Assembly (NCBI GenBank): GCA_000146465.1
Contig: CP001947.1
Reading direction: 5' to 3' (one strand)
DNA length: 64,000 bases
Position 1 is the first letter of the stretch. Each line of letters begins with the position of its first letter. This document shows, in pieces, positions 35,267 through 59,873 of this stretch. The notes beneath the pieces are model-generated. The model searched no databases and had not been told where the DNA came from. It was given only the letters and a program-made list of their open reading frames with translations. Position numbers and translations under genes: made by a program.

Positions 35267-35347
35267 ACCTTGATAGGTTCCTGTATGGATGAAAATAAAC
35301 ACTTTTCTGTCCAATTACATATTAGAATTGTATTCTTCCAAGCCCTA

Positions 35348-35614
35348 ATGACCGAGCCGAGGGTTGAAGATGTGTATCGCCCGTCTTTCCGCAAATGCAT
35401 TCTGAGGACCATGGGAGCATGCTTTATATCCGGCTATCTTGTGGGCTCTTCTTTTCGATTGGCTGCCGGAAGTAGATGCGACTACGGCCAATACCTTGCA
35501 AACAAGCTTTGTGCTGCTGGGGTGTGTTTCCAACTTGGAAGAAGACTGACTGCCGAGGTGGTAGGAGGGGTAAAAAAGAATTTTATTTCGTGGCGGCTTT
35601 CTCCCTGGAAATGA
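35348..35614 (+). CDS. small glycine-zipper membrane protein (88 aa); speculative Romo1/Mgr2- or Tim17-family-like
   Basis: ATG at 35348. The pattern PSFRKCILRTMGACFISGYLVGSSF has G-x3-G spacing like the PS..D..KMGf.mG...G...G..FG core of Romo1/Mgr2. The stop TGA (35612-35614) overlaps the next gene's ATG. Confidence 0.35.
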   Translation: MTEPRVEDVYRPSFRKCILRTMGACFISGYLVGSSFRLAAGSRCDYGQYLANKLCAAGVCFQLGRRLTAEVVGGVKKNFISWRLSPWK

Positions 35615-37368
35615 AGCTATTTGGGCAGGAGTTGTCGACATATATGTATGGAAGGATACTGGACCGAAAGTTTATAACTCCTTCGGGATCATATGAGATA
35701 GAGCCGTTGGAGATTGCTTCTGGGATGCATCCAGTGAGATACAACGGGAAGATAGAAATCTTTTATGTGTCCCCGATATTCAACAGCTATCTTGTGTCCC
35801 GCGAAGAGAATGTTAATGTACTGTTTTCAGCAGACGGAAAGGTTACAATCACCAACGAGGATATAGACAAAGATACTCTGTACACTTTTCGGATTGTCCG
35901 GGAGACGAGCGATCTTAGAGTTGCCGAGATCTACAAGTTTGATACATTTTATCCTGGATTCAAGACGACTGGAGAAGTCAAGTGGAAGATAGGGAAGGAT
36001 GGGCGGAGGATTTACACAGTACAGACCAAATATGGGGATGGAACTCTGATTATGCAGAACAACAAAGAAAAGAATATTGTAAGTGTTCTTCTGTATAAAA
36101 AGGACAAGGAACTTCATTTCGTACAGGTCGACGACCCAATAAGCGGTATTGTAAAGATGACTGTGACGGCAGAGATGGGCAACAAATATGGGGTGAGGGA
36201 TCGTAATGTACGAGGATTTCTTATCACAAACAACACTTATAAGACTGGGGATTCTGTGGCATGCACAATTAAGGAAGTCTGGCTGGGAAACTACTTGTTT
36301 ACAGAGTATTTTGAGCTAGGGATAGGATCTATTATTGAAGCTCGTGTTAAGAGCTATGGAAAGAACAAGATATATCTTGAATATAAAGGCCACGAAGGAT
36401 ACATTTTGATTTCTGAATCCGAAGGAAGAAGATACGGAAACAATGTGAGGGGAACTGTGTATGACATAAAAGATGGTTTGTTCCTGCTGAGCACCAAGAG
36501 GATACCTGAATTGGAAAGAAAAGAGAAGGGGATTGATCTATCTGTTCCCTTCGATATCTCTGATCAGACAGAGGAATCAAGTGACTCTTTAGAAGAGGAT
36601 GTGGATGGAGTGAGCAGGTCTTTAGGGGCCGAAAGAAAAAGAAGCAAGACAGTAACAGAGGACGATATCTTAATGGACATCCACGCACATCCTGGAGAAG
36701 CGATTCCTGTGATCAAATACATACAATACAAAATCGAAATTGGAGAGGAAGGAGGACCCGAAGAGATTTTCCATAAGTTCCTTCCTATGATTGAGGGGGA
36801 AGAAAAGGATAAGCTTTGTATTTCGTTTGTGAACTACCTAATGTTTGTCAAGGATCCAGATTGCCTGAAGGTGATAAAGAAGTTGTCGAAGATATGCTCG
36901 GAACGATTCCTGGATGCTGTTGCATCCAACACCGACGACATCCAGGTCCTTAGGCTCTATTTTGAAAGGACGGAGACAAGGAAGTCCTTTGGAATGTACT
37001 TGGATGGGCTATTCAAAGCAGACCGAGAGGAAGCCATGAGACTTGTTGAAAAGCATAGAGAGCTCCTTGGCGTATCGATTGGTATAATATACAAGCATTG
37101 CGAGAACCCAAGAGCATGGGTGGAGAAGCTATTGGTTGACAAGAAGGATGTTTGGATGTCTTACATCCGAAACGAAAAAGGAACGTATCTTCGGAGCCTT
37201 TACAGAAGAGTTGTTGACAAGAAGTGGAAGGTGAGTGACATGAAGGAGTTCTACAAGATGTGGATGGATTATGAGAAGGAGAACAACGGAAATATAGAAG
37301 AAGTAAAGCTAAGAGCCAGAGAATATGTTGGGAGCATCAAGAACAATTCCGTGCATAGACAAGCATAA
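35611..37368 (+). CDS. RRP5: rRNA biogenesis protein RRP5-like (S1 domains plus C-terminal HAT/TPR repeats)
   Basis: S1-like segments (GDSVACTIKEVWLGNYLF.., GSIIEARVKSYGKNKIYLEY) and a helical-repeat C-terminus ending FYKMWMDYEKENNGNIEEVKLRAREYV. Start at the ATG at 35611. Confidence 0.55.
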   Translation: MKLFGQELSTYMYGRILDRKFITPSGSYEIEPLEIASGMHPVRYNGKIEIFYVSPIFNSYLVSREENVNVLFSADGKVTITNEDIDKDTLYTFRIVRETSDLRVAEIYKFDTFYPGFKTTGEVKWKIGKDGRRIYTVQTKYGDGTLIMQNNKEKNIVSVLLYKKDKELHFVQVDDPISGIVKMTVTAEMGNKYGVRDRNVRGFLITNNTYKTGDSVACTIKEVWLGNYLFTEYFELGIGSIIEARVKSYGKNKIYLEYKGHEGYILISESEGRRYGNNVRGTVYDIKDGLFLLSTKRIPELERKEKGIDLSVPFDISDQTEESSDSLEEDVDGVSRSLGAERKRSKTVTEDDILMDIHAHPGEAIPVIKYIQYKIEIGEEGGPEEIFHKFLPMIEGEEKDKLCISFVNYLMFVKDPDCLKVIKKLSKICSERFLDAVASNTDDIQVLRLYFERTETRKSFGMYLDGLFKADREEAMRLVEKHRELLGVSIGIIYKHCENPRAWVEKLLVDKKDVWMSYIRNEKGTYLRSLYRRVVDKKWKVSDMKEFYKMWMDYEKENNGNIEEVKLRAREYVGSIKNNSVHRQA

Positions 37369-43072: not shown

Positions 43073-43301
43073 ATGGATGGGGCCAGAGGATAGGCTTGAA
43101 TACCCCTTTTCTGAAGGGACCTGAGATTTGAAGAGAGCTGACCAGTGAGGTTTTAGAGGGATTCTAGGATAGGCAGAAAAAAAACAGCCAATTACTCCAA
43201 GAAAAGATTAAGGAGATCTGCAATATACTTGGGCATAGAAAAGAAGATGGAGTCAATAACGAGGTGTGTTTCTATTGGCATAGAAAATTATAAATAATCA
43301 G

Positions 43302-44400: not shown

Positions 44401-46638
44401 ATGAAGAAGAGGGGATGTTCGGAAGTCTCTTCCTTTGAAAGACACATGGACACAGTTCTTTCTGTCCCGGATATCCTAGGAAGAAAGGAAGTCTTGAGGC
44501 CTGTAGTGTTCTCGCACAGGGACGACTCTGAAGATGGGTTGGAAGCAATGAATGACAGAGAAGTGTTTATGGCAGCTCTGAGACGAAGGATGAACCTTCT
44601 ACTTGGTCCCAGAGTGGTTGAAAAAGCAGATTTGGATATTTACAGAGATGATAATGTCTGGATGAATGAGATTAGAATGAGCTCGGAAGAAAGGAAGGAA
44701 GAACTCTGTGGGGAAAAGAGAGTAGCTTTTGTTTCTGTGGACCCGGACCTTTATGGGATTGTTGCAAACGAAATTCCTGGGTCAGGAACGAAGGACGATA
44801 GCTTTTTGTATGTTAGAAGAAGAATAGTGGGTCTTGAGAGCCGGGTGGAGTTTTTGTTTAGAAGAAGCTGGGGGATAATGGAGAGTAAAAAGGTATTATC
44901 GCTTGCTTCGCTCGATAGCTTAGTGAGGAAGGATGGATTTCAAGGTATTGTGATGGTGGATGGAAAGTCAGTGGTTTTGAGCAAGGCTGTAGAAGAGGTG
45001 AACATTGGACTTCGAAACAGGAATGCAGGGATTATGGAAAACAATATCCGGGGCACTTTTACTATCCGAGTAGACGGACTGGATGGGTCGGGAGAGAAGC
45101 TCCAGAGTGTGAAGCTGGTATGTGGATATAGAGAAAGTGACTTCCAAGTTCGATTTGGATACCATAAGATGTATAAGGTAATGCCTATGGAGAGACTGAT
45201 GAACTACTATCTGGACAACAAATGCATTCCTCTTGGAAAACTTCTCGAAGAGCTTGTCTGCATCTCGCAACCTGGGAGTCTAAGAGACAATTGTTTAAGA
45301 TTCATAGAGTTGAAGGCCAGCTTGTTTTTTGGAGAAGCCGAGATATCTCCTTATGATGTTGGGAGCTCACTCTTGTTTTTTCTTTGGATGTTTGGAGGAA
45401 GTCGATTGTCGTTGATAACAAACAAGATCATAGAGTACATCGAGTATGTACTTAGTGAGCTAGACATCTGCCGAAGCTCTACCAAGGACTTTTTGTTCCT
45501 TCATGAGACATGTATCTTCATAAATAAGATCATTCTACTGGAAAGACAGGCAGGAGAGATTGGAAGCCATAGAAAGCCAAGTATTGGGGATATGAAGAAA
45601 GATATGCAGGTTGGAGTTGGGCCATCGGATTGGTACGAATGGGACGATTTTTGCCCAAAAGAGTCATGCACTGCCCTTGCCTATTACAAGGCAGCAGATT
45701 TCTCAGAAAACCTTGTACTCAGGCTAAGAAGAATAGGCCACCAAGAGAAGATGCATGAAGAAGATGCCAAGCCCATTGTCAAAAGCACAATTGAGGATCT
45801 TCTTCTTGAAAGCCTTAGGATCTCAAAAGCCGAGTGTATTAGAAGCCGATCTCCGGGACTAAGAAAGCTTTTTGGGGTGTATCGAAGAATGAATAAGATT
45901 TCTCAGAAAGGCCTTGCTAGATTTGTGGATAGGGACAAGACAAGTAATCTCATTATCTCTATTCTTGAAGAGAATACTGTGTTTGACTGTGAGACTCTCC
46001 TCCTGTGTACCATTTTGAAGGATATTTCACAGATTGTTCCAGTAAGAGTGTCTGTTCTCGATAAGGCACTAGTTAAATGCATAAGTGAGGTTGTGGAAAT
46101 GTTTGGAAAAAGGTTGAGGCGGCTTCTTCGAAAGGGCGAAGAAGATGTTGAAAATGCATTTGAACCAATAAGACTGTTCTTTAAAAGACTTCGGTATCTG
46201 AACTCGACTATACACGAGGAGATATTCAAGAGCGACCTGCATCATGCCATAGAAGAGGAGTGCTTCTACCGACTCCGAAAGATATCTCGAGATGTCAGGG
46301 GAGGGCTTAGACAGCTGGAACTCTGCAGGAAATTGCATGAGGAGCATCTTCGGATGTTTAACTCAATGAATCGAGAGATCGAGCTTGGATACTGTCTGGA
46401 AGAAAAGAAAGCCTTCATGAGGCTTTATGATGTTAGAAAGATAAAAAGGATGCTGAGAAATCCAGAGATTCTAGAGAAAGAGATATTAAAGATGATTGGG
46501 GAAGGGACATTTGCAGACGATAATGTACGCAACAGATACAAGCTGTATCTGTACGAGTGCATTAAGGAGAACGCCCGGGTGCTTTCCAAGGATAGATATG
46601 ATGAGACAATGATGTCTGTAAATAAATGCTTCATATGA
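44401..46638 (+). CDS. large hypothetical protein (745 aa)
   Basis: Uninterrupted ATG ORF with a helical-repeat-like C-terminal half. No domain recognised. Confidence 0.6.
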   Translation: MKKRGCSEVSSFERHMDTVLSVPDILGRKEVLRPVVFSHRDDSEDGLEAMNDREVFMAALRRRMNLLLGPRVVEKADLDIYRDDNVWMNEIRMSSEERKEELCGEKRVAFVSVDPDLYGIVANEIPGSGTKDDSFLYVRRRIVGLESRVEFLFRRSWGIMESKKVLSLASLDSLVRKDGFQGIVMVDGKSVVLSKAVEEVNIGLRNRNAGIMENNIRGTFTIRVDGLDGSGEKLQSVKLVCGYRESDFQVRFGYHKMYKVMPMERLMNYYLDNKCIPLGKLLEELVCISQPGSLRDNCLRFIELKASLFFGEAEISPYDVGSSLLFFLWMFGGSRLSLITNKIIEYIEYVLSELDICRSSTKDFLFLHETCIFINKIILLERQAGEIGSHRKPSIGDMKKDMQVGVGPSDWYEWDDFCPKESCTALAYYKAADFSENLVLRLRRIGHQEKMHEEDAKPIVKSTIEDLLLESLRISKAECIRSRSPGLRKLFGVYRRMNKISQKGLARFVDRDKTSNLIISILEENTVFDCETLLLCTILKDISQIVPVRVSVLDKALVKCISEVVEMFGKRLRRLLRKGEEDVENAFEPIRLFFKRLRYLNSTIHEEIFKSDLHHAIEEECFYRLRKISRDVRGGLRQLELCRKLHEEHLRMFNSMNREIELGYCLEEKKAFMRLYDVRKIKRMLRNPEILEKEILKMIGEGTFADDNVRNRYKLYLYECIKENARVLSKDRYDETMMSVNKCFI

Positions 46639-46763
46639 TTTGATTTCCATATTGTGTATATCTAGAATTGGTGCAAAGACTTGGTTGGCTCGGAAGAGGA
46701 AACCAATAAAGGGCTAAGGAAAAGAAAAAAGGGAAGATTTCGGGATTTTATTTGTTACATGGA

Positions 46764-47624
46764 ATGAAAAGGAGAAGCAGATGTTTATATAGAGATAGGA
46801 TAGGATGGAAACCGATGGAGGATAAGGATACAAAGAGAAAAAAGAAGAACATCATAATAATCAATGATAAGGGAGAAATGTTGAGTGTGGCAAAGAAAGA
46901 TGATGGAAACATAACAGATGTGGAGAGGCCTGAGGAGATGAATACGAAGGCAGAGAGTGTTCGAGAAGAAGAGAAATCCCAAGAAAAGGAACAAAAAGAA
47001 CTCTCGGAAGTAAAGGACACTAAAGACACTTCCGATATGTCCAAGGACCGTCTGGAGCACTCTGAAGAGAAGACACCGGAAGAAGAAAGTAAGAAGGAAA
47101 CGAAGGAGGAAGAATCCAAAGAGAAGGAAGAAAGCCAGAAGGAAGAGGTATCAACACCCTCGAATTCCAAGGAGCCCAAAGACAACGAGAAGGCGGAAGA
47201 TGCACCCACACCCTCTGAGAAGGGCGATACTTTTGTTCCTCCTATACTCAAGACACTTTCCGAGAACTCCAACAAGGAGATATTTGAGGAGAGAGACAAA
47301 GGTAGCATAGTGGCCGAGGGATGGATTTGGAAGAAGAGGAGGATCTTCAGCTGTTTCTGGCATCAGAAGTATTTTGTTCTCACAAAGGACGGGGTTCTGA
47401 AGTACTACAAGGCCGATGGAAGAAGGAAGGCAAAGGGGAACTGGAACATTAAGGAAGCAGACGATCTCAGAGAATACAATCTTCCCAGCGAAGAGAACAA
47501 GCATCCTTGCAGAGTAATGGTGGTCTTCCCCGACAGCTCCCTTCTTCTGGCATTCGACGAAAGAAACACTAAGGACTACTGGGTGGAAAGGCTTAATGAG
47601 ATCATTAAGAAGTCGAAGAAGTAA
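46764..47624 (+). CDS. PH-domain protein with K/E/S-rich N-terminal region
   Basis: C-terminal PH domain GWIWKKRRIFSCFWHQKYFVLTKDGVLKYYK...DYWVERLNEIIKK. First ATG at 46764 (track start is TTG). A downstream ATG at 46815 is also possible. Confidence 0.7.
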   Translation: MKRRSRCLYRDRIGWKPMEDKDTKRKKKNIIIINDKGEMLSVAKKDDGNITDVERPEEMNTKAESVREEEKSQEKEQKELSEVKDTKDTSDMSKDRLEHSEEKTPEEESKKETKEEESKEKEESQKEEVSTPSNSKEPKDNEKAEDAPTPSEKGDTFVPPILKTLSENSNKEIFEERDKGSIVAEGWIWKKRRIFSCFWHQKYFVLTKDGVLKYYKADGRRKAKGNWNIKEADDLREYNLPSEENKHPCRVMVVFPDSSLLLAFDERNTKDYWVERLNEIIKKSKK

Positions 47625-47678
47625 AAAACCAATCTTCTGGGAATAAACATTGATTTTTATTAACAAAATCTATGAGGC

Positions 47679-48194
47679 TCAGTTCTTCTTTGTGATGACT
47701 GCCTCCATTACTTTGAAAAAAAAGGTCTTTACCTGGCACTCGTCGAATGTTATCTCTTCGCTGAGGAAGTCTGGAAGATCCACGTTTCTAGACTCAATAA
47801 GCTTGTAGACATAAGAATTCTCCTCGGGTGTCAACACAAATCTAATGAATTTTGTAACATTGTTCGACACAATCTCGTGGGTTACCTCATAGCTTCCATC
47901 ATTCTCGACTATGTCAAACCCAACAAACTTCTTGTACAACAGTGCATCCGTCTTCAAAGACCTTAGATACTCATTCTCCTTCTTATAGCTCTCTATCAAA
48001 TCCTCTTCCTTCATCTTCATTTCAATGAGGATCTGTTTGTATCTAGATGCAGAATCAAGATCTCTCCTCTCCTCTGCACATACTGCCTTCTGGGGCCTGT
48101 TCTCTTTGGAATCAGAGGCTTCGACATCCTTTGTGGGTGTCTTTGTCCCCTTTCTTGGCGTCTTAAACGTTATTCTCTTCCTAGGTGTCTTCAT
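47679..48194 (-). CDS. Csm1/Pcs1 (monopolin)-like protein
   Basis: 171 aa with a basic N-terminus and a coiled coil. The C-terminal globular part FIRFVLTPEENSYVYKLIESRNVDLPDFLSEEITFDECQVKTFFFKVMEAVI is collinear with the yeast Csm1 segment YKLGFV...VIYAPVL...LPEYLFETLSFPLSSLNQFYNKIAKSL as I recall it. Confidence 0.45.
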   Translation of the reverse strand: MKTPRKRITFKTPRKGTKTPTKDVEASDSKENRPQKAVCAEERRDLDSASRYKQILIEMKMKEEDLIESYKKENEYLRSLKTDALLYKKFVGFDIVENDGSYEVTHEIVSNNVTKFIRFVLTPEENSYVYKLIESRNVDLPDFLSEEITFDECQVKTFFFKVMEAVITKKN

Positions 48195-48274
48195 TTGTAT
48201 TTCCTATTCGGGGATCCCCTTGATAATTTTTTACAGATCCTGAAGACATCCCAATAGACATATTCTAAGGTATT

Positions 48275-49579
48275 TTATTTACTACTCTTCTTTCTCCTGC
48301 TTATTCTTCTCCCCTTCGAATGCTTTCCTCCGCAGTATTTCTCTTTCTTGTCTCTCCCTCCCTTCATCGATTCCACTCTCTCCTCCTTGCTTGCCTTCCG
48401 CCGGATAAACTCAAGATTCCTCCCGCAATACTTCCTGTGTCTCATCACATTGACAACAGACATGTATCCATAAGATATGCTCTTGCTCTTCGATCCCTTG
48501 AAACATTCTATATACTTTGAAATCCTTTCTTTCATCCTATCAACCACTCCGTCTTCTTTTTTTTCGTTCCGCTCTCCGTCCTCGCTGATGGAAAGGGACT
48601 GTGTCTCCGAGTCTTCTTTTCCGCCCCCTTCGTCTCTCAGTCTTGCTGCTTCTGGATCAAACTTGCAATATATCTCCCTCAGCATGTTCAATCCATACAC
48701 TACAAAGTCGTCGTCCTTGAACTCAGAGCACAGCGAGTTTCCTACAACATCGATCACTCGAAGAACATCTTGCACAGTCACCTCCTCCACAATGATCTCC
48801 ATCAAGTCCTTGATATCGCTTTTTTCGGGGTTTAGCATTCCCATTGCTACACGTGCAACTGAGGCTTTCAGCCCATATCTGCTCCGGAACAAAACATAGA
48901 TCTTCATTTTCATGATCTTCTCTTCTCTCTCCATCATATTTTCCTGAAGATTTGCAAATAGCATCTTTCCAAATCTTGACGCCTCCGCACTAAGTAACTC
49001 CATGGCCTTCTTTCCCTCCTCTTCAAAGTCTATCTGGTCCAGAAAGTACATTCTGCAGATCTTTCCCACTTTTCCATCTGCAAAGAGCCCTTCACACACT
49101 TCCTTCTCGAGAACACCACACCCCTTTCTAAACAGATATACAACCAGATAGTAGCAGAAGCTCCTTTGCTTGTCTGTTCCCTTTTTGTAGTACTCTAAAA
49201 TACATGGAACCTCCTCTTCCGAGACAAGACTCCTTATCCTCTTCAGAACCGACTTGGGGTCTGGATGGTGCTCCATGAGGTTCTTGAGGAGCTGCTCCCC
49301 GCTTACTAGTCCTCTTCTCCGAAGCCTAAAGAGACTCTCAACAACAGTTCGCTTTATTTTGTGGCACTTGATGGTCTCCACACTTGAAACAAGAGTCTCC
49401 GAAAGCCTTTTGTCGATTGTAGGGAAAGCAAGAAGAAATGAAAGAGTCTGCCGGATAGTCTTCCCCGGTTGCTTTGGGAGCCTCACAAGAGAGCTAAACA
49501 GCTCGAGCTGTCTTCCATACTCCTCCACATAGTTCTCTGGGCATTTTTCCAGCCCAACCATCACTTGGTAGATATCCAT
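48275..49579 (-). CDS. SDA1: 60S pre-ribosome export/maturation factor SDA1
   Basis: The N-terminus LEKCPENYVEEYGRQLELFSSLVRL parallels Sda1 L.krDPe.Y.eEF..Qy.hy.sl. A helical-repeat body is followed by a very basic C-terminal tail. Confidence 0.55.
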   Translation of the reverse strand: MDIYQVMVGLEKCPENYVEEYGRQLELFSSLVRLPKQPGKTIRQTLSFLLAFPTIDKRLSETLVSSVETIKCHKIKRTVVESLFRLRRRGLVSGEQLLKNLMEHHPDPKSVLKRIRSLVSEEEVPCILEYYKKGTDKQRSFCYYLVVYLFRKGCGVLEKEVCEGLFADGKVGKICRMYFLDQIDFEEEGKKAMELLSAEASRFGKMLFANLQENMMEREEKIMKMKIYVLFRSRYGLKASVARVAMGMLNPEKSDIKDLMEIIVEEVTVQDVLRVIDVVGNSLCSEFKDDDFVVYGLNMLREIYCKFDPEAARLRDEGGGKEDSETQSLSISEDGERNEKKEDGVVDRMKERISKYIECFKGSKSKSISYGYMSVVNVMRHRKYCGRNLEFIRRKASKEERVESMKGGRDKKEKYCGGKHSKGRRISRRKKSSK

Positions 49580-49720
49580 ATTATCGGGTCAAAAATTTTA
49601 GTCTTAAGTTGGCATACCTCGGACTTCGATCTTTGGCCTAACGTCGCCTCCTCGGCCTCTTACTTCCTTCCTTCCTGAAACATCAATAAAACCTTGTCTA
49701 AACATTGGAGGCAACAGCAG

Positions 49721-50995
49721 ATGCCTCTGGTCGATTTCATTGCAACCTTCTATAAAAAGAACAACATCCTTTACGATACCTTTGTAGGTGCATGGCTTGA
49801 GCTCAAGGAATGCAAAAACATAGAGAGAAACCTTGCACGTCTTCTCAAATGCCTCAGACATGAACAGACGAGCCAGGCAAGCTACAGATGTCTTGAATAT
49901 TTTGTGGAAAATGAAATGGCCGATTTCATATACAGATTGAGAGACATCGAAGAAAACCAGGCTGCCATGGATTTTCTTACTGACCTTATTTCCATTCTTC
50001 CTGCCAAATATTTCCCAAGATTCAACAACTTCCTTGATATGGTGTTCGCATCTGAACACACCGACGGTCTGGCACTGGCTCTAGCATATTCAGAAAGAAC
50101 CATTGTTCTTGGCTGCAGGATAAGAACATCTCTCGTAAACTACTCCTTGAGGTTCTTTTTTGATCCAGGTCTACATGGGGACTATTCCAGAGCATGCATT
50201 GTATATCTCATATGCTCTAAAAGAGCTCTTGACCATCTCAGGTCCATGGAATTCATCCAAGCCGTCATAAGAAGGACAAATAGAATATACCTCGACTTGG
50301 AAAAAACCATGCCACTTTATCTGTCTCTTCTGAACTTCATTTCATATTATGCAAGAAAGGAAATCGATCTGTATAAAGAAGAAATTGACGCCGCTCTCGG
50401 TAGCCAAGAAGGAACTTTAGATCCAAAGAAGATAAGGACTCATCCAACAACAAGTCCTCTACTCCCCCCAAGAAGCAACCAATCCTCCGCAGAGCTATGT
50501 TCTGCCCTTCATCTCCTCGAGTTCCCCCACATGCATCCCGTCTCCATATACATAGAAATCCTGGAGAGTACTGGGTCGTCCAATATAAGGGCATCGCTCA
50601 TCGAATCTATCCTAGCAGACATAGATTCTGTAGATGACCCAGGGAAATTCATAAGATTCTGTGCGGAGAACCACCCAGGTCTCTTGGCCCCTTATCTCAT
50701 TAGAAACGGCGGAGAAGACTGGTCTCCCATTGTTGTGCTCAGGAGAGTTATGGAAATGAAAAGAGAGAGGTCCTGCATCACAATCCCCTACGTATGCCAT
50801 GTCAATCGCCACAAATCCTCCATAATCGATTTCCTTGTTGAAAAAAACATTTGCGACGACCTGGTGTTCTTGTTCATCTGGGTTGTATCTAAGGAAACAT
50901 TCCTTTCTCATTTCGGAAGGATCCAAGAGATGTTCAAAGCCCACAAGACATTCTGGGCCAATCTATGGAACCTGATCCTCTCCCTCCCTGCCTAA
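49721..50995 (+). CDS. hypothetical helical-repeat protein (424 aa)
   Basis: ORF from the first ATG (track start 49694 is TTG). No domain recognised. Confidence 0.5.
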   Translation: MPLVDFIATFYKKNNILYDTFVGAWLELKECKNIERNLARLLKCLRHEQTSQASYRCLEYFVENEMADFIYRLRDIEENQAAMDFLTDLISILPAKYFPRFNNFLDMVFASEHTDGLALALAYSERTIVLGCRIRTSLVNYSLRFFFDPGLHGDYSRACIVYLICSKRALDHLRSMEFIQAVIRRTNRIYLDLEKTMPLYLSLLNFISYYARKEIDLYKEEIDAALGSQEGTLDPKKIRTHPTTSPLLPPRSNQSSAELCSALHLLEFPHMHPVSIYIEILESTGSSNIRASLIESILADIDSVDDPGKFIRFCAENHPGLLAPYLIRNGGEDWSPIVVLRRVMEMKRERSCITIPYVCHVNRHKSSIIDFLVEKNICDDLVFLFIWVVSKETFLSHFGRIQEMFKAHKTFWANLWNLILSLPA

Positions 50996-51024
50996 CTTAT
51001 TCTTATGTAAGCCGATGACCCCAT

Positions 51025-51768
51025 ATGAAGGACAGCACTGATTTTACTGAGACGGAAGCATATTCAAAGATATACAACTTCATTCTGATGGTCGACGACT
51101 CAATCAAAAACTCGGAACAGAGACGAAGCGAGCATCATATGTCCATTCTTGCAAACATCTTCGAGATTGTAGACAGCACAGAGAAGGATCCGTCTCCACA
51201 GAGGTATGCAAACATGGCTGCCAAAACCGTATTCCAAAGAATATGCGGTGCATATGACGACGAACATCTCAAAAACTCATTTGGAAACCAGATAAGATTG
51301 GACTATGGCACCGGCCATGAGCTGAACTTCCTGTGCTACCTCTACACTCACCATTGTAGAGGAGACATCAGCCTCGACTGTGTATTTACCACCCTTGTAA
51401 GATACTTCGAGGTTGTCAGGCTCTTTGTATCAAAATTCAATCTGGAGCCGGCCGGAAGTCATGGAATATGGGGTCTGGACGACTATCAATTTCTGCCCTT
51501 CCTCTTTGGGTCTTCTGAGCTCTGCAACACAAGGCTCAGATTCGACGAGCTCAACGACTCCATGTGCTACTTTGTTGCAGTCAAGAAGAAGTTGGGAGGC
51601 ACCTCTCAAATCCTCAACAGCATCATGGATAAGGACTGGCCAAAAGTCAACAGGGGAATGATTAGGATGTACGATGACCATGTGCTCAGAAGAAGCGTTG
51701 TGACACAGCACTTCATCTATGGAGAATACCTCAAGAAGGACAGAAGTCTAGCCACTAAAGAACTCTGA
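51025..51768 (+). CDS. RRD2: PP2A phosphatase activator PTPA (RRD1/RRD2 family)
   Basis: DYGTGHELNFLCYLY and PAGSHGIWGLDDYQFLPFLFGSSEL are the PTPA signature blocks. Confidence 0.9.
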   Translation: MKDSTDFTETEAYSKIYNFILMVDDSIKNSEQRRSEHHMSILANIFEIVDSTEKDPSPQRYANMAAKTVFQRICGAYDDEHLKNSFGNQIRLDYGTGHELNFLCYLYTHHCRGDISLDCVFTTLVRYFEVVRLFVSKFNLEPAGSHGIWGLDDYQFLPFLFGSSELCNTRLRFDELNDSMCYFVAVKKKLGGTSQILNSIMDKDWPKVNRGMIRMYDDHVLRRSVVTQHFIYGEYLKKDRSLATKEL

Positions 51769-51805
51769 AACTCACATAGTAACCAAACCACTTTAATTAA
51801 AGTCA

Positions 51806-52786
51806 TCAGAAGTCGACATCTATCCTGAACGAATCATTTCCATTATCTATCCCCACAAATGCCTTCTGGTACTGTGACTCTCTCTTGTCGAAGAAGTTTG
51901 TCTTTCCAACCAAAGAGATGTTCTCCATAAAATCAAACGGGTTGGGAGTATGGTATATCTTCTCCTCCTCAAGATTCTCTAGGAGAGTATCGGCTACAAA
52001 CTCTATATATTTGCACATCAACTGGCAGTTCATCCCTATAAGATCCACTGGAAGACTTTCACTCAGAAACCTCTTTTCAACTTCGACTGCATCCATCACC
52101 ACCTCCTTTACTCGCTTGCACTTCTGTTTCAGGTAACGTCTATGCAAAAGGCATGCAAACTCACAGTGCAGACCCTCGTCCCTGCTTATCAGCTCGTTCG
52201 AAAACGTTAGTCCAGGCATCAGCCCTCTCTTCTTCAGCCAGAATATAGATGCAAATGACCCAGAAAAGAATATACCCTCCACACAGGCAAACGCCACAAG
52301 CCTTGTTGCAAAGTCAGAATTCTTATCCTCAATCCATTTTATTGCCCAATCGGCCTTGTCTTTCACAGAGGGGATAGTTTTGACTGCATTAAAAAGGAAC
52401 TTCTTCTGTTCTCCGTCCCTTACATACGTGTCAATCAGCAGGCTGTACATCTCACTGTGGATGTTCTCAATTGCAATCTGGAACCCATAGAATAGCTTTG
52501 CTTCAAGCATCTTGACCTCGCTGGAGAACCGCTCCACCAGATTCAGATTGACAATTCCATCAGACGCCGCAAAGAATGCAAGAACATTGGAGATAAAGTG
52601 CTTCTCCTTTGGATTTAACTTCTTCCAATCTTCAATGTCTTTGTCGAGGAGAACCTCTTCCACAGTCCAGAACGAGCTTTCAGCCTTCTTGTACATCCTC
52701 CATACATCTTCGTGTTGTATGGGAAAGAGTACAAACCTCTCTTCTTTAGGATCCAATAGTGGCTCAATTTTTTCTTCGCAACTCAT
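51806..52786 (-). CDS. RNR2: ribonucleotide reductase small (R2) subunit
   Basis: 326 aa with R2 iron/tyrosyl-radical motifs: [48 protein letters not shown] and [10 protein letters not shown]. Confidence 0.95.
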
Positions 52787-53064
52787 AAGCTATTTGACAG
52801 AATCTGCTTATATACTTTTTTTTGGAGGGAATATCTCCCTCAAAATAATAATCATCTAAATTCAATTTTACAATCCTTGCTCGATCTAATTTCGTCGATC
52901 CCCTCTTGGCATTTGGCTTCACCCACCTAAGCCATGGCGGGAGAGCGGCCCCAGAACCTAAGCTAGGAATGACTATTTATTGTAAATAATGTTCCCTATA
53001 AAAGGAACACTGGTATTATTTATATTTACTGCACCCTATATATTATAACTATTATTGAATGTTT

Positions 53065-53717
53065 TTACTCAAGATCAATAAATTCCTTTCTCATGAATGG
53101 TAATATACGTTTTCTCGCATTTGCAAACCAATTATCTATTTGAGACAATTTTAGTCCTGTTTCTTTAGAAAGTATTTTTTTTCTATTTTAGTTGGATAAG
53201 GATTAGAAAGATGCTCCTTTAGCCATCTTCTTAGCATTTTGGACACTTCTCTTGGAAAATTAGCTCTCCTAGAATGAGGACTACTTCCGAGCCAACCATT
53301 AGTTGATGAATTATTTCTTATATAACTCTCATACCTGTATAAATCCCTCTCGTTCATTACATTCATCATATCTATGATGTTGTCCATTTTTCTTTGGAGT
53401 TTGGTGCATTCTGAATCAAATATAGAAACAAGATTTTTTTCAAATAGTAATGCATACTTAAATTTCTCAGCAATTAGAAACAAAGCTAGCTTGTGTGATA
53501 AGTTATTCGGAAAAAAATGTGTATTGGAGCATGTTTCGTAATTTTTCCGAATTTTTAATAGGACTTCCTTCAAATGATGTTCATTTATCATTCCTTGAAA
53601 ATATTGTTCTTTTGCGATTAATATTTGGCCAATATGCTCCACCATATCTAGAAAACTATCGGCATTTAAAACAAAAATTGATAAACTCGTAATTAACGTT
53701 ATAAAAATAATATCCAT
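53065..53717 (-). CDS. TALE-class homeobox protein with its frame broken by a 1-nt shift in an A8 run (frame A 53717..53175, then -1 frame 53175..53065)
   Basis: Track ORF 53151..53717 ends ...[39 protein letters not shown], which covers helices 1-2 with the TALE 3-aa loop. The -1 frame continues [36 protein letters not shown], which covers helix 3. The join is at the minus-strand A8 run, 53182..53175. Confidence 0.8.
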
Positions 53718-53797
53718 ATCACTTCAGAAGACTATTATAACTTGTCAAACTCATCAAGACAAGATAAAGTATAAAATAAAAAGATATTTTACAAAAT

Positions 53798-55276
53798 ATG
53801 AATTTAGGATGGCTACTGAAGATTCCAATGCGAAAACATTCAAACAGGAAAATAATTGTATATGAAAATAGCATGGCTTCGTTTTACTCTAGGACGTTTG
53901 AAATAATTGAAGAGCATATTTCTACCATATCCAATAATGAACATCATAGAGATGGATTAGTAGAGTATATAGAAATGTTATCATATTTTCAAATCTCTAA
54001 TGAAGATCATGAGAAAAAAGAAGAAATTAATAGACAAAGGCAAAGCTTACTTAAGAAATTTAGATCCCTAACCTTAATTAGTATTTCAAAAGTAGAAAAA
54101 GACAATAGGAAAATATTGAAATCTTATCATGGAGTATTACATCTTTTAGATTTGATTGGTTTTGGTGTAAATCCTTATGAAATGGTTTTAAAAAAATGGT
54201 TAAACACCAATTGTATGATAATTAGTGATGTAGAAAGACATGCCATAAGAGGAAATTTCGAAAAAGTGATCGAAGCATATCCCTATTTAAACGAGGCTAT
54301 TAATAATTATTTAAACTTAAGGAAGACGTCAGGAAATGAATACAGGAAATTATTTGCGTCTTGGAAGATCAAATATTTTAAAATTATTCCCAATAATTTA
54401 AAGGAAATTCTTTTTCATAATATTAACGGGGATGGTATTGACTGGATTGATCATATTTGCTATAAATCGTTTTGTATGAACACACAAAGGAATGGGATCG
54501 ATCTTATAAATAGGGAAGATGAAATCGGAATGATATTAACACATAATTATGATGCACTAATAGAACGTTCTAAAGGATGGATTAGACTAGTATTATTGTT
54601 CGTTTGCCCTCATACAAAATTTGATTTATTTCCAAGAGCATTTGAATCTATCGGGAAATTCCTATATTTATCAGATTATCGCTTATCTTTGAGATTTTTT
54701 TCGTACACAGAGAAACTAATCTTATACTTTAATCACTTTTCCTGTAAGTTTTCTAAAAGTCTTTCGGATTTAGAATTCTTGGTTGAGTATTCCAAAAAAA
54801 ATAATATTAATGGAAATTCTTTGTTAAAAGAGTACTGCCAAAATCTTCTTTCTAATCAAGAGTATTATAATCTTTTTTATGTTATATCTAAATATGAGCT
54901 CTGCGATATAAACATAAATTCCGAGTTTATAGAATTCTGTATTAGAAATACAACAATACTAACTGAAAACTTCACTAAAACATCGTATGGAATTTTTATT
55001 GGAAACTTTAGGAGATTTCTTAGTGGAATAAAAGTTGGTGAAGGTGAAATTATAGCATTGATAAATTCAGATTATTTTTCAGCTCTAGATAGTAGAACAT
55101 TTGAAATAATACTAGAGAACAGATGCATTACTGTGAACATGCTTTATAAGCTTTTAGAAGGAATGTTAAATGTGGAAAGAAAAGGGAAGTCTAATCCCAT
55201 ATTGAAAAGCAAAAAAGCTTTAGTTCTCAATAAGTTAGCGGAATCTACAGGTCTCGGGAAGGACATATCAATTTAA
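53798..55276 (+). CDS. hypothetical protein (492 aa) encoded in the AT-rich island
   Basis: An uninterrupted 1.5-kb ATG ORF in about 30% GC DNA is very unlikely by chance, because stop codons are AT-rich. N/I/K/L-rich. No domain recognised and no homeodomain. Confidence 0.6.
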   Translation: MNLGWLLKIPMRKHSNRKIIVYENSMASFYSRTFEIIEEHISTISNNEHHRDGLVEYIEMLSYFQISNEDHEKKEEINRQRQSLLKKFRSLTLISISKVEKDNRKILKSYHGVLHLLDLIGFGVNPYEMVLKKWLNTNCMIISDVERHAIRGNFEKVIEAYPYLNEAINNYLNLRKTSGNEYRKLFASWKIKYFKIIPNNLKEILFHNINGDGIDWIDHICYKSFCMNTQRNGIDLINREDEIGMILTHNYDALIERSKGWIRLVLLFVCPHTKFDLFPRAFESIGKFLYLSDYRLSLRFFSYTEKLILYFNHFSCKFSKSLSDLEFLVEYSKKNNINGNSLLKEYCQNLLSNQEYYNLFYVISKYELCDININSEFIEFCIRNTTILTENFTKTSYGIFIGNFRRFLSGIKVGEGEIIALINSDYFSALDSRTFEIILENRCITVNMLYKLLEGMLNVERKGKSNPILKSKKALVLNKLAESTGLGKDISI

Positions 55277-55614
55277 ACTATTAAACTGGTAGTATCAATT
55301 TAAATTACAAATACTTTGGAAATATCTCCTTCTGTTTATTAACTTTTCAAGGGATTGCCGTTTTTTAAAACAAACATATAAGAGTGATGATACATAACTT
55401 CTTTTTGTATTCTTAAGTAAATTCATGTAAAATTTTAGAATAAAATGTCCGAAGATATTTGAGTTCCTATAGCAATAGCAGAAACACACCCTATCTCAAT
55501 TCATTATACTTCCTGGGAATCCATACTTTAAAGATTTAAAGTAAAACTAAAAAGGAAGGGGGTGTTTATTTCAATAGATTAAAATCGAAATATTGTATTT
55601 TTAAACTAAGAGAT

Positions 55615-58440
55615 TTAATGAGCAAACACTCTGGAGACATATACCGGCCCGAGTATCTCATCAATAGAGAGGTCTTCTTTTGCTATCTCGTTGACAGCCT
55701 CAACAACTTTCTCTTCATAGCTCAGGTCGATTATACCCCTTAGATACTTGTTCCATATGTCGGTGCTGTAGATTTCAAAGTTTTTCTTCCTTTCCCTGAA
55801 GAACGAGATGACTCCGTTTCGGAACTCTTCAAACTGATCTTCGCTCATCTCTCTGAAGTATTCGTCCAGGTCTTTTACAAACTTCCTTATCCTCTTTTCA
55901 AGGAAGTCTACATCCTTCTCGCTTTGCACTATGAATTTGATGTACTGCTCGTCATCTAGATTCAGAACCCCAGACCCAACTACATACCCAAGCTCTTCCT
56001 TTGTCCGCAGATCATCGAAGAACATCGCTTTGCATGACTGTTGTACAAAGTGGGCTATGGCTGCATCCTTGTGGTTCCTGCATTTTCCGCAATAGTAGTT
56101 CAAGGAACATGCATTGTTCACCTTGTCGCTTGTTTTCACATCACATCTGTATTTTCCATCAAGAAGATCTTTCTTTACATAATCGTATACTTCCTCCTGT
56201 TTCGAAAGAATATTTTCAAATATCTTCTCGGCATCTTGATACTCGATGTTCCCAATCACAAACATTTCCAAGAAGAACTTTCGGCTCATCTTGAATTCCG
56301 TGTCTACAGAGCTCAGCTTCTCCATCAGCTCCTCTGCCATCAAATGTCCGGGAATCCTCATGCACTTCAGCCCTTCATTGCATCGCTTGTGAGGGCTTTC
56401 GTTTCTCTTTGTCTCAAACTCATTCCAAATCCGCTCCTTCACAAGGTTCCGCCGTGACTGGTTGGGCTCTTCAAACAGAATGTCGAAAAACTGCCGGGAG
56501 ATCTCAACACTCATGTGGTTAAAGCATTCTATCCGAATCTCCACCCCATAGTGCTCGACACGAACATCGATGTTCATTCCTGTTCCGTGAAGATATCCAT
56601 CGTGCCTTCTAAAGAATTGGCTCTTGGCATTTCTGAGCAGAAATATCAAGTTAATCATGTTCTCATTGATTTGGTCCATTCGAAGAAGACATCCTATAAA
56701 GACCTTTGGAACCTTGTAGGTATCGTTAAACAGGTAGTTGATTTTTCCTCCAGAAACCTCCTTTGAAATAATTTCTGAAGGGGCCTCGATTTTTATCATC
56801 TCTCCTTCCTTCCACTCAACTGCCTTCTCCAGTGAGTCTTCAGAGACCACTTTGTCTTTTTCATTGTACTTCGGAGAATACACCTCTTCTGTTTTAAACT
56901 CCCCCTTTAAATCCTTTTGCCCTTGAAGTTCGAGCCATTTGGAGAAATCCGTCATCTTCTGGACAATCTTCTTGACTTCTTCTTTCTTTCCTTTAGAGGA
57001 CTTCTGGGGAAGGACATTTGGGAACACCTTTTCTTCTTTCTTTGGTAAGTCCAACTCAAATATCTGGTCTCCCACATTGTATCTCACCCCATATATCTCC
57101 TCGCGCATGTCAAACATCCCTGTTCCCTTTGCAACATGGAACACAAGCCACTTTGGGAAGTTCATCATCTTTTCCACAATCCCCTTGATCTCGTTCTTGT
57201 CAAATTTCTCAAAACAGTGTTCGTTATCAAGAACATTCTCAACCGGGAAAAACTGCATGTTTCTAGAGATCTTCTGTGCCTGGTACATAGGCTCGTCACT
57301 CTCCTCGTACTTGAACACATATCTCGATCTCTTTTGGATCTCTTCATACTCATCAGAAGAGATGGGGATGTCTTTGAGATACCTTACAAGTTCTAAAAGA
57401 ACTCTTTCAGGTCTTTTGTTTCCCTCGGAAGACAGATGCATTGTTATTATTATCAGAGAATAGTCTGTGTAGTGGCACATCTCATACTCAACCTGCAGAA
57501 CGAGCCCTTTGTCCTTAACCCTACATGCAAACCCCTTTGTATCGTCCCGAAGAAACATATTCATTACATACTCGTAAGGATTGTTCTTGAAAATCTTGTA
57601 CCCCGACTCAACAGTCATTGTAACAACAATCGATCTTGTATCTGCAATAGGCTCCACCCTGATCCATCGGTTGGTGTATTCAGAGTCAAACACAGTCCAT
57701 TCCTTGTCTGCTTCAAGTTCTATGTTTCCACTGCTCTTCTTCTCCTCGGTCCCCTTTGGAACCCCCTCAAACATCTTCAACATCTCCTTTAGCTCCTCCA
57801 GACCTTTGTTTCCACAAATCACTGTACACATTTTATCGCAGGAATACTTCTGTTTCCAGAACTCTGCCATCTCTTCCCATATCCCTTCTTTTCGAAGTGT
57901 GTCGTAGTTTCCTGTGCTGAACATAGATATCGGCAGTTCCTTCTTGCAGCATCTTGAAATCATCCTCCAGATCCTCCAGTCATCAACATTCAGTCCGTTA
58001 CAGAACTCGGAGTTCACAGCCGACACCTCTCTCTCCACCGAGTTTTTCTTCAGCAGTGGTGTCTTGAAGAAGTCTGCAAGTCGGTCCACCCCTTCTTCAA
58101 AAGCCTCAGGAGCAATATCGAAGTAATACACAGTAACCTCTCCATAGGTGGAGGCATTGTATTCCCCGTTGTTCTTTGAAAGGAATTTGCCAAAATCCTC
58201 TTCATCAGGGTATTTCTCAGTCCCCATAAACAGCATATGCTCAAGGAAATGTGCAAGACCTTGAGTAGATACCGGGTTATCAAACGATCCAACCTTGACA
58301 GAGACTGCACAGCTGCACTTGTCCAGTGAAGGATCCGACATAATCAGCCCTCGCATCCCGTTGGGCATCTCGACATACTCATATTCCATCGAGTCGGTGA
58401 GACTCTTGTGAATCTTTTTGGCAACTTTAAGACAATTCAT
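55615..58440 (-). CDS. insulinase-family (M16A) zinc metalloprotease, insulin-degrading-enzyme/STE23-like
   Basis: Inverted zinc motif GLAHFLEHMLFMGTEKYP (HxxEH). Four-domain length of about 940 aa. The N-terminus IHKSLTDSMEYEYVEMPNGMRGLIMSDP parallels the IDE start. Start chosen at the ATG at 58440 (MNCLKVAKK); the track start at 58599 adds 53 residues unlike the family. Confidence 0.85.
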   Translation of the reverse strand: MNCLKVAKKIHKSLTDSMEYEYVEMPNGMRGLIMSDPSLDKCSCAVSVKVGSFDNPVSTQGLAHFLEHMLFMGTEKYPDEEDFGKFLSKNNGEYNASTYGEVTVYYFDIAPEAFEEGVDRLADFFKTPLLKKNSVEREVSAVNSEFCNGLNVDDWRIWRMISRCCKKELPISMFSTGNYDTLRKEGIWEEMAEFWKQKYSCDKMCTVICGNKGLEELKEMLKMFEGVPKGTEEKKSSGNIELEADKEWTVFDSEYTNRWIRVEPIADTRSIVVTMTVESGYKIFKNNPYEYVMNMFLRDDTKGFACRVKDKGLVLQVEYEMCHYTDYSLIIITMHLSSEGNKRPERVLLELVRYLKDIPISSDEYEEIQKRSRYVFKYEESDEPMYQAQKISRNMQFFPVENVLDNEHCFEKFDKNEIKGIVEKMMNFPKWLVFHVAKGTGMFDMREEIYGVRYNVGDQIFELDLPKKEEKVFPNVLPQKSSKGKKEEVKKIVQKMTDFSKWLELQGQKDLKGEFKTEEVYSPKYNEKDKVVSEDSLEKAVEWKEGEMIKIEAPSEIISKEVSGGKINYLFNDTYKVPKVFIGCLLRMDQINENMINLIFLLRNAKSQFFRRHDGYLHGTGMNIDVRVEHYGVEIRIECFNHMSVEISRQFFDILFEEPNQSRRNLVKERIWNEFETKRNESPHKRCNEGLKCMRIPGHLMAEELMEKLSSVDTEFKMSRKFFLEMFVIGNIEYQDAEKIFENILSKQEEVYDYVKKDLLDGKYRCDVKTSDKVNNACSLNYYCGKCRNHKDAAIAHFVQQSCKAMFFDDLRTKEELGYVVGSGVLNLDDEQYIKFIVQSEKDVDFLEKRIRKFVKDLDEYFREMSEDQFEEFRNGVISFFRERKKNFEIYSTDIWNKYLRGIIDLSYEEKVVEAVNEIAKEDLSIDEILGPVYVSRVFAH

Positions 58441-58550
58441 TAAAGCGGAAAGCCTAACCATAAGGGCTTCCAAGGTTCTGTTTATAGGAAAATTTTGTCT
58501 GGCACTACTGGAAAATACGAGAAACCGCCCCGGAATGACCCTGAAATAAC

Positions 58551-59873
58551 ATGGAGACTGCAAGGAAGATAAGGAGACACAAAATACTTGCATATGCACT
58601 GACTGCGGTGGAGGCCATGGGGCTGTCTGTGGTGGTTAAACAGGCCGTCAGGAATCCGCTTAGAGTTCTTTTGAATCCACCGAAGGGCCTTGTGCGAGGT
58701 CTGTGTTCCATCCCTACTATTATGCTATGGATTGCCATATACATATACCTTTCGGGGAAAGTTGCACAAGAAGCAGGAAGGCCTCGGACGGTCATCTTCT
58801 TCTATCATCTTACCTCACAGATAATGTTTTTGGGGTACCTTTCCAAGCCGGGTTCAGATGTTGGAATGAATAGTAGATGGGTCACGCTTATACCAACAAA
58901 CGGATGTTCTGTATACAGCGTGGCTCTTTCCATATCCTCGGCAACACTCCAAACATATATTGAGGAGATTCTATGGATGAAGCCAAGATACACACGAGTT
59001 AGAGGATTGTTCAACTACATGGGAAGAAGTATAGGAGTGATGGTGCGAGACATGTTTTATCTTTGTATTGGCAGCGAGTTCATGGCAATAGGTGCTCTTA
59101 CGATGTGCTTGGTAGTCTCGAAGACTCTGTTTCCATGGTCACGCCTTGGACCTTTCTGGTTATTCCAGGGAACAGCTTGGAGGATGTCTGGGGGGTTTTT
59201 GGCTGCCAACATCTCTACTGCTGCTTATTTTCTTCTGATGAGTGCCATTGATAGGCTTCTAACTTACAACATGTCACTGATGAATCTTGGCTTGGGCGAC
59301 TACTGCTGTAACGAGGAGGAGAGCATCAACACCTCAAGACTGAGGTTTTTCCAGATATCCGAGCTTTCAATGAAATATCCCGAGGTTTTCAAAAAGGTGG
59401 CAAGATCAAACAAAGCTGTTTCGTCCCTTGGGCTGTATGTCCGTAGAGAAGAAAGAGAGATTTTAAAGATCATGGAAACGATGAGGAGAGAGAGGGAAAC
59501 ACTTGAGTCCCGAATGTGGTTTTCTGTTCCCCAGATCACCCAACCTCTAGACAAACCAAAGGCGTTGGTTGTTCAAAGAAAAGTTCAGTTTGTAAAGAGA
59601 ATAAGATCGTATAATTTCATTGAGATTCTTGCATCCAGGATCGTATACTTCTTTAAGATACGTATTTTGATTAATAGATACAAGGGCACCAGAAGACCGT
59701 TCCTTCTGGTAAAGAGCTTTATGAAGTTTCTAGAGAAATATAGAAGGGACTACCTACTTCTCAAGGATCTTGACGAGACGTTTGAGGCCTCGATGAAGAA
59801 TCTGCACAACGAAATCTCCAACACCGAGGAGGTGATTGGGATTGGTCTGGAGTCGGAGCTGTTCTGTAAGTAA
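58551..59873 (+). CDS. hypothetical multi-pass membrane protein (440 aa)
   Basis: About 6 hydrophobic helices in the first 240 aa, followed by a basic and helical C-terminal domain. No family recognised. Confidence 0.5.
   Translation: METARKIRRHKILAYALTAVEAMGLSVVVKQAVRNPLRVLLNPPKGLVRGLCSIPTIMLWIAIYIYLSGKVAQEAGRPRTVIFFYHLTSQIMFLGYLSKPGSDVGMNSRWVTLIPTNGCSVYSVALSISSATLQTYIEEILWMKPRYTRVRGLFNYMGRSIGVMVRDMFYLCIGSEFMAIGALTMCLVVSKTLFPWSRLGPFWLFQGTAWRMSGGFLAANISTAAYFLLMSAIDRLLTYNMSLMNLGLGDYCCNEEESINTSRLRFFQISELSMKYPEVFKKVARSNKAVSSLGLYVRREEREILKIMETMRRERETLESRMWFSVPQITQPLDKPKALVVQRKVQFVKRIRSYNFIEILASRIVYFFKIRILINRYKGTRRPFLLVKSFMKFLEKYRRDYLLLKDLDETFEASMKNLHNEISNTEEVIGIGLESELFCK

Follow-up and report, generated by a model that had tools for sequence, protein, structure and literature searches.

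A frameshifted allele of the homeobox gene HD-12 in Encephalitozoon intestinalis, probably a recent slippage deletion in an A tract that differs in length between isolates

A single base gained or lost in a coding homopolymer does not always silence the gene. In Buchnera, Blochmannia, the herpesvirus thymidine kinase gene and other cases, homopolymer indels are offset by slippage of the polymerase or of the ribosome (PMC5009743). E. coli RNA polymerase requires at least 7 T for slippage, and more where the run is of A (PMC6260861). Ribosome sliding has been demonstrated on iterated AAA lysine codons (PMC4363877). Our literature search returned nothing useful on slippage or frameshifting in Encephalitozoon or the microsporidia, nor on Encephalitozoon homeobox genes or run ERR13302946. 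No nuclear genomes known are smaller than those of Encephalitozoon species, which have very few transcription factors. For E. cuniculi the number of homeobox genes described is about a dozen. Here we analyse a homeobox gene of E. intestinalis that is split between two reading frames at a run of eight A's.

The DNA under study, referred to here as the window, is a stretch of 64,000 nucleotides from E. intestinalis chromosome 6 (GenBank assembly GCA_000146465.1, contig CP001947.1). It has a GC content of about 42%, is dense in genes and leaves almost no intergenic space. The homeobox gene analysed here is Eint_060650, which is orthologous to HD-12 of E. cuniculi. Its features are collected in Table 1.

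Table 1. Features of Eint_060650 and its interrupted homeodomain, in window coordinates.
Feature	Position	Strand	Evidence
Eint_060650, full extent from the conserved start to the stop of the restored frame, with the 1-nt deletion inside	53065..53645	-	orthologues, Pfam, intact 193-aa gene
24 in-frame codons MDIIFITLITSLSIFVLNADSFLD 5' of the conserved start, probably untranslated	53646..53717	-	orthologue starts
Homeodomain helix 1, residues 132-144, kept in the truncated product	53214..53252	-	AlphaFold2, Pfam, alignment
TAA in the -1 frame, two codons 5' of the A run	53190..53188	-	translation
A8 run, T8 on the + strand, one nt shorter than in the A9 allele (site of the deletion)	53182..53175	-	DNA comparison, orthologues
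-1 frame segment: rest of helix 2, helix 3, C-terminal tail and stop	53065..53174	-	translation, AlphaFold2, alignment
Premature TAA of frame A, after seven out-of-frame codons (YFLKKQD)	53153..53151	-	translation
Part coding for helix 3, contains WFANARKR	53148..53083	-	AlphaFold2 boundaries
Stop of the -1 frame	53067..53065	-	translation

The minus strand reads ...CCA ACT AAA ATA GAA AAA AAA TAC TTT CTA AAG AAA CAG GAC TAA, and the A run is bounded by G at 53183 and T at 53174. In the upstream frame (frame A) the run is read as gaA AAA AAA tac and supplies codons for a Glu-Lys-Lys that belongs to the first half of helix 2. Translated from the ATG at 53717, frame A gives 188 aa ending in YFLKKQD and a stop. 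The -1 frame carries on with ILSKET, which completes helix 2 and whose first codon (ATA) includes the A at 53175 as well. The segment lacks an ATG before its last few codons, in the tail, so helix 3 could be expressed only through a change of frame. Since the -1 frame has a TAA just upstream of the run and frame A stops shortly after it, a productive -1 shift is limited to a window of 13 codons, in which the A run is the sole slippery sequence. An intron was ruled out: the offset is a single nucleotide, homology to the orthologues is continuous across the run and there is no room for one.

With nine A's the two frames become one open reading frame (ORF) of 217 codons. This had been predicted from the window, and exactly this ORF is encoded by the independent A9 assembly of run ERR13302946. 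The upstream ATG at 53717 is used solely by an automatic gene call on the Logan contig of that run. In the orthologues (191-193 aa), as in the curated E. intestinalis models, the first residue is the methionine at 53645, and this second ATG is most likely the real start. Because orthologues and curated models begin there, the products are most likely 164 aa for the truncated form and 193 aa for the intact form, rather than the 188 and 217 aa given in the initial annotation.

A protein search with the joined sequence returned four matching clusters. One holds a 193-aa E. intestinalis protein, P7C65_06s1g09050, that is 100% identical to the joined protein. The second is 'Homeobox protein HD-12' of E. 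cuniculi, 56% identical over the whole 193 aa and also named 'MEI2-RELATED PROTEIN' in the sources. The third is a homeodomain protein of E. hellem (52% identity), and the fourth comes from the assembly of the species in run SRR21633403 (47%). The gene order M16 peptidase, homeobox gene, ribonucleotide reductase (RNR) small subunit and PTPA is common to E. intestinalis, E. cuniculi and E. hellem. The SRR21633403 species, seen on a 79.6-kb contig, shares only the M16 peptidase among the neighbours of the homeobox gene; RNR and PTPA are absent downstream, and a gene of the fructose-bisphosphate aldolase type lies close to its HD-12 orthologue.

The joined protein contains a complete TALE homeodomain. 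Pfam Homeobox_KN (PF05920) matches it over the whole model (1-40 of 40) at 69.6 bits and E 2e-19, against a gathering cut-off of 24 bits, which bears out the earlier observation that the joined sequence fits the TALE consensus. The truncated product matches the model over 1-22 of 40 only (26.1 bits). The TALE/KN homeodomain is split by a 1-nt frameshift in the A8 run. Frame A encodes HLSNPYPTK, in which the P-Y-P of the three-residue TALE loop extension follows helix 1 and is likewise kept in the truncated product. The WFxNxR core of helix 3, present as WFANARKR, is encoded in the -1 frame only, so that the helix missing from frame A does lie, as proposed, between the break and the stop of that frame. 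Alignment of the homeodomain with TALE domains of known structure (TGIF2LX, TGIF1, PKNOX1 and MEIS1/2) gives E values of 1e-16 to 1e-14, and a residue-by-residue alignment to TGIF2LX agrees with the loop extension and the WFxNxR.

AlphaFold2 predicts a three-helix homeodomain fold for the intact allele. Helix 1 is placed at residues 132-144, helix 2 at 153-163 and helix 3 at 167-188 of the 193-aa protein, with a pLDDT of 78-87 (about 80) over the homeodomain. The N-terminal region is modelled with low confidence (pLDDT 35-68), and no Pfam family matches the N-terminal 125 residues. These boundaries correct one point of the initial annotation, in which frame A was said to encode helices 1 and 2. 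The break follows K157 and interrupts helix 2 halfway along.

The state of the run in other species indicates which allele is derived. E. cuniculi reads GAA AAA AAA ATG, with nine A's. E. hellem reads GAA AAA AAA GTA, eight A's followed by G. In the SRR21633403 species the run is broken by AAG codons: GAAAAGAAGATG (GAA AAG AAG ATG). All three are in frame and all three outgroup proteins are full length. Because the orthologues of three other species are in frame, we take the in-frame A9 as ancestral and A8 as a derived 1-nt deletion. Homopolymers in the window reach 8 nt at most, which makes the ancestral A9 the longest run of the region and the one most prone to slippage. The tract exists because Glu-Lys-Lys-Ile is encoded in a gene of 30% GC that prefers AAA: 12 of its 17 lysine codons are AAA (71%), compared with 38% in the window's genes overall.

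The truncated 164-aa product ending in YFLKKQD has been deposited under four accessions: ADM11673.2 (Eint_060650, ATCC 50506), UTX45410.1, KAL7345567.1 and KAL7349475.1. The A9 form is found in two sources. One is assembly GCA_051312795.1, with the intact 193-aa protein KAL7347515.1; the other is run ERR13302946, with the 217-aa automatic gene call. The protein cluster that holds the intact form has three member sequences, of 193, 217 and 164 aa. Outside the window, A8 was read from the deposited protein sequences, and DNA was compared for GCA_051312795.1 and ERR13302946. The window aligns to GCA_051312795.1 over 13,621 nt (45025..58645) with one gap, at the A run, and zero mismatches. Three contigs of ERR13302946 are identical to it over 15,357 nt save for the same single A gap. 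Four other A8/T8 runs lie inside the compared stretch and match between the sources, since the alignments show the single gap only. A comparison of run length across orthologues and strains, as the initial annotation had proposed, therefore finds the outgroups in frame and both A8 and A9 within E. intestinalis. A run that differs in length between assemblies of one species, with the in-frame state ancestral, is the pattern of a homopolymer indel polymorphism or incipient pseudogene.

Published assemblies of E. intestinalis were built in different ways. The 2010 E. intestinalis assembly used Illumina 31-bp reads at 40x and Velvet. The 2023 telomere-to-telomere assembly used Nanopore reads with iterative Pilon polishing by Illumina reads. 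The 2025 assemblies cover isolates ATCC 50507, 50603 and 50651 and were made de novo with SPAdes from Illumina 151-bp reads at >300x. Judging from the accession series and the papers, UTX45410.1 would belong to the 2023 assembly and the three KAL accessions to the three 2025 isolates, two of them truncated and one intact. On the same grounds A8 appears to be the allele of the reference strain, ATCC 50506, and two of the four A8 accessions may represent that one strain. Cultures may also hold mixed or heterozygous populations of A8 and A9. ERR13302946 may be DNA or RNA; if it is RNA from an A8 strain, its A9 would indicate slippage.

We think it likely that the window carries a recent loss-of-function allele of HD-12, polymorphic between isolates and made by replication slippage in the A9 tract. 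A recent inactivating mutation was among the explanations first put forward, and it is the one that the data support, with the addition that the lesion is polymorphic between isolates (A8 under four protein accessions, A9 in two sources). The ancestral gene would have read GAA AAA AAA ATA, encoding Glu-Lys-Lys-Ile in helix 2 with nine A's. Replication slippage, the simplest mechanism and an ordinary kind of event at a coding homopolymer, would then have dropped one A in one or more lineages, among them that of the window's source. The A8 allele encodes a protein, most likely of 164 aa, in which helix 1 and the TALE loop are retained together with the helical region at the N terminus and five residues of helix 2. 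Seven wrong residues and a stop follow, with the loss of half of helix 2 and the whole recognition helix. Because the recognition helix is absent, this product should not bind DNA, and the missing helix 3 suggests that the allele is a loss of function. Full-length protein would arise from it only by rare, unprogrammed slippage of RNA polymerase or ribosome.

The deletion appears to be very recent, because the downstream frame is the same in both alleles and no other base differs in 13.6 kb. Further decay 3' of the lesion, in the form of extra stops or indels, is absent; the downstream frame is identical to that of the intact allele. This is no evidence for or against continued function, since the isolates show no other differences either, and for the same reason nothing is inferred about relaxed or continued selection.

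Four other accounts of the A8 run have to be weighed against this loss-of-function polymorphism, the first being that the organism has nine A's and the window's eight are a homopolymer miscall by sequencing or assembly. Homopolymers are the classic site of indel errors, the two independent sources with A9 are otherwise identical in sequence, and another A8 run (43177) marks the end of a Logan contig of ERR13302946, a hint of homopolymer trouble in at least that data set. Against this, the truncated product occurs under four accessions that map, by inference, to separate data sets containing Illumina reads and processed with three assemblers or polishers. Illumina data distinguish eight from nine A's well. 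By the same mapping, two of the three isolates assembled with the 2025 pipeline have A8 and one has A9, and a pipeline that returns both states resolves them. No other homopolymer discrepancy appears in 13.6 kb, the four other 8-nt runs included, and a light check of the window turned up no other split gene. A base-call error, one of the explanations first offered, is highly improbable because Illumina reads resolve the two states and one 2025 pipeline produced both. Independent data do show nine A's, which the initial annotation had equated with a simple assembly error, for some isolates; for others they show eight. A dedicated -1 ribosomal frameshift or transcriptional slippage site, which would yield a homeodomain-less isoform beside the full-length factor, is highly improbable. 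The run in frame A does form an X XXY YYZ heptamer, as noted at the outset, if in a formal sense, and TALE proteins in animals and plants have homeodomain-less isoforms. A site of this kind would be expected to be conserved and to have a stimulatory structure, yet the two-frame arrangement is absent from the E. cuniculi, E. hellem and SRR21633403 orthologues and from the conspecific A9 isolate, which also disfavours programmed transcriptional slippage. The downstream RNA folds no better than shuffled sequences (100 nt 3' of the run, -14.8 kcal/mol, z -1.12; 56 nt, -7.4 kcal/mol, z -0.91). Folding of these 100 and 56 nt placed no stimulatory structure 5-9 nt after the heptamer; the sole hairpin is weak (-7.4 kcal/mol) and begins about 18 nt after the run. 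An Rfam search of the gene and its 3' spacer found no RNA family, the lone match (sroH, E 0.45) being meaningless.

The two remaining accounts accept the deletion as real and differ from a plain loss of function in what the tract still does. In one, unprogrammed slippage, either transcriptional (one A added on the T8 template) or ribosomal in the -1 direction, restores enough full-length HD-12 for the allele to be leaky. A -1 shift or one extra A in the mRNA would give exactly the ancestral protein, and the A run is the only slippery site in the 13-codon productive window. A8 would be present in three of four ATCC isolates under the inferred accession mapping, and precedents are reviewed in PMC5009743. 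The undecayed downstream frame fits as well, though it is equally expected of any very recent mutation, and no stimulatory structure is present. Eight A's are at or below the length for appreciable slippage by cellular RNA polymerases, and ribosome sliding needs A stretches longer than eight. Because the run is short on both counts, we expect at most a small percentage of full-length product from the A8 allele, and consider a functionally leaky allele unlikely. In the other, A8 and A9 toggle at a high rate and turn the transcription factor OFF and ON within populations, a contingency (phase-variable) locus in which selection would act on the mix, for example between culture and host or between developmental programmes. 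Both states among isolates otherwise identical over >13 kb would fit recurrent mutation at a hot spot, and three of four species retain a long A run at these codons. However, Glu-Lys-Lys in a gene of 30% GC with 71% AAA is enough to account for the run, and the SRR21633403 species interrupts it with AAG codons. There is no sign of reversal or of within-culture mixtures, and shared descent of A8 accounts for the data equally well. A contingency locus is very improbable. Taken broadly, the idea that the tract is a functional switch rather than damage, whether as a contingency locus that reversibly switches this regulator between lineages or through slippage that yields both products, is improbable too. 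In the dual-product version the homeodomain-less protein would possibly act as a dominant negative beside a little full-length factor. We know of no recoding or phase-variation mechanism reported earlier in a microsporidian, and a functional switch, if true, would to our knowledge be the first.

Frame fusion on its own says little. In an ORF-fusion scan of the window, 12 of the 106 runs tested gave a longer ORF after a homopolymer edit of plus or minus one base. Such lengthening is common after 1-nt edits and so is no evidence in itself; the split of Eint_060650 is judged real because the homeodomain is continuous across the run and because of the orthologues. One edit in the window, an A added to the A6 run at 35572..35577, fuses the ORF at 35270..35614 to the 630-aa ORF at 35476..37368 and gives 700 codons. 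Neither part has a Pfam match, and this fusion is probably due to chance. The overlapping same-strand ORF pairs 1757/2028, 35270/35476 and 38140/38370 were considered as further split genes and rejected, since Pfam found no split domain in them. The Logan contig of ERR13302946 mentioned above stops precisely where an intergenic A8 run begins (43177..43184). Reads of ERR13302946 may be heterogeneous at homopolymers, which bears on the weight of its A9 call.

The sequence around the gene has its own peculiarities. Eint_060650 lies in an AT-rich patch (52800..55600) with 27-32% GC, compared with 42-45% in the flanks. The patch also contains Eint_060660, a 492-aa ORF on the plus strand (53798..55276) that is transcribed divergently from the homeobox gene. 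Pfam found no domain in Eint_060660, and no homologue outside E. intestinalis was found among 5.8 billion proteins. E. cuniculi, E. hellem and the SRR21633403 species lack it at the syntenic position, with just 380-550 bp between their M16 peptidase and homeobox genes. From these comparisons Eint_060660 looks like a lineage-specific orphan gene beside the homeobox gene.

On the other side, the spacer between the homeobox gene and the RNR small-subunit gene (51806..52786, minus strand) is unusually long at 278 nt. A promoter-like element lies 5' of the RNR gene at about 52805..52850 on the minus strand and consists of an inverted repeat, GAGGGAGAT/ATTCCCTCC, then A8, then GTATATAAG. The E. cuniculi copy is identical and that of E. 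hellem nearly so, and the remaining spacer is poorly conserved. The A8 of this element has equal length in E. intestinalis, E. cuniculi and E. hellem. Also within the spacer, about 100 nt (52860..52960, minus strand) are rich in GC; this stretch is weakly conserved between species, and no Rfam family matched it.

ATCC 50506 is the E. intestinalis strain of the reference genome, of infection studies and of single-cell transcriptome work. If the accession mapping is right, the finding matters modestly because this reference strain carries the broken allele. The truncated model is already in GenBank and, as far as we searched, the literature does not flag it as a frameshifted allele. Should ATCC 50506 have the truncated HD-12 and at least one further isolate the intact gene, the current 164-aa model ought to be marked as such an allele, and isolates could differ in their regulatory or developmental phenotypes. 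The strain used as reference seems to be naturally mutant in one member of a very small set of homeobox regulators, and an intact isolate is available for comparison. A8 and A9 isolates would form a natural mutant and wild-type pair for studying the role of HD-12.

Several described systems resemble this locus in part. The gene shares with HD-12 of E. cuniculi its neighbours (M16 peptidase, RNR small subunit and PTPA) and 56% identity, and with the TALE homeodomains of TGIF, MEIS and PKNOX the PYP loop extension and the WFxNAR. Unlike E. cuniculi HD-12 and the animal TALE homeodomains, it is interrupted after K157 in helix 2. Like canonical -1 programmed frameshift sites, it has A AAA AAA as a zero-frame heptamer, and shifting by -1 would give a C-terminally extended, functional product. 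Unlike them, it lacks a stimulatory structure at the usual spacing of 5-9 nt, and the arrangement is absent from orthologues and from another isolate. The Buchnera and Blochmannia poly(A) alleles and the A10 tract of human TGFBR2 (PMC5009743) are, like the present allele, single-base indels in a coding mononucleotide run. If leaky slippage did rescue the A8 allele, the case would be similar to the frameshifts in poly(A) tracts of Buchnera and Blochmannia and to the 'savior indel' of herpesvirus thymidine kinase. As in the two bacteria, the gene sits in a reduced, gene-dense genome, its downstream frame is undamaged and slippage could in principle rescue it. In contrast to them, the tract has only 8-9 A's and the host is a eukaryote that transcribes with RNA polymerase II, so that rescue here is putative and probably weak.
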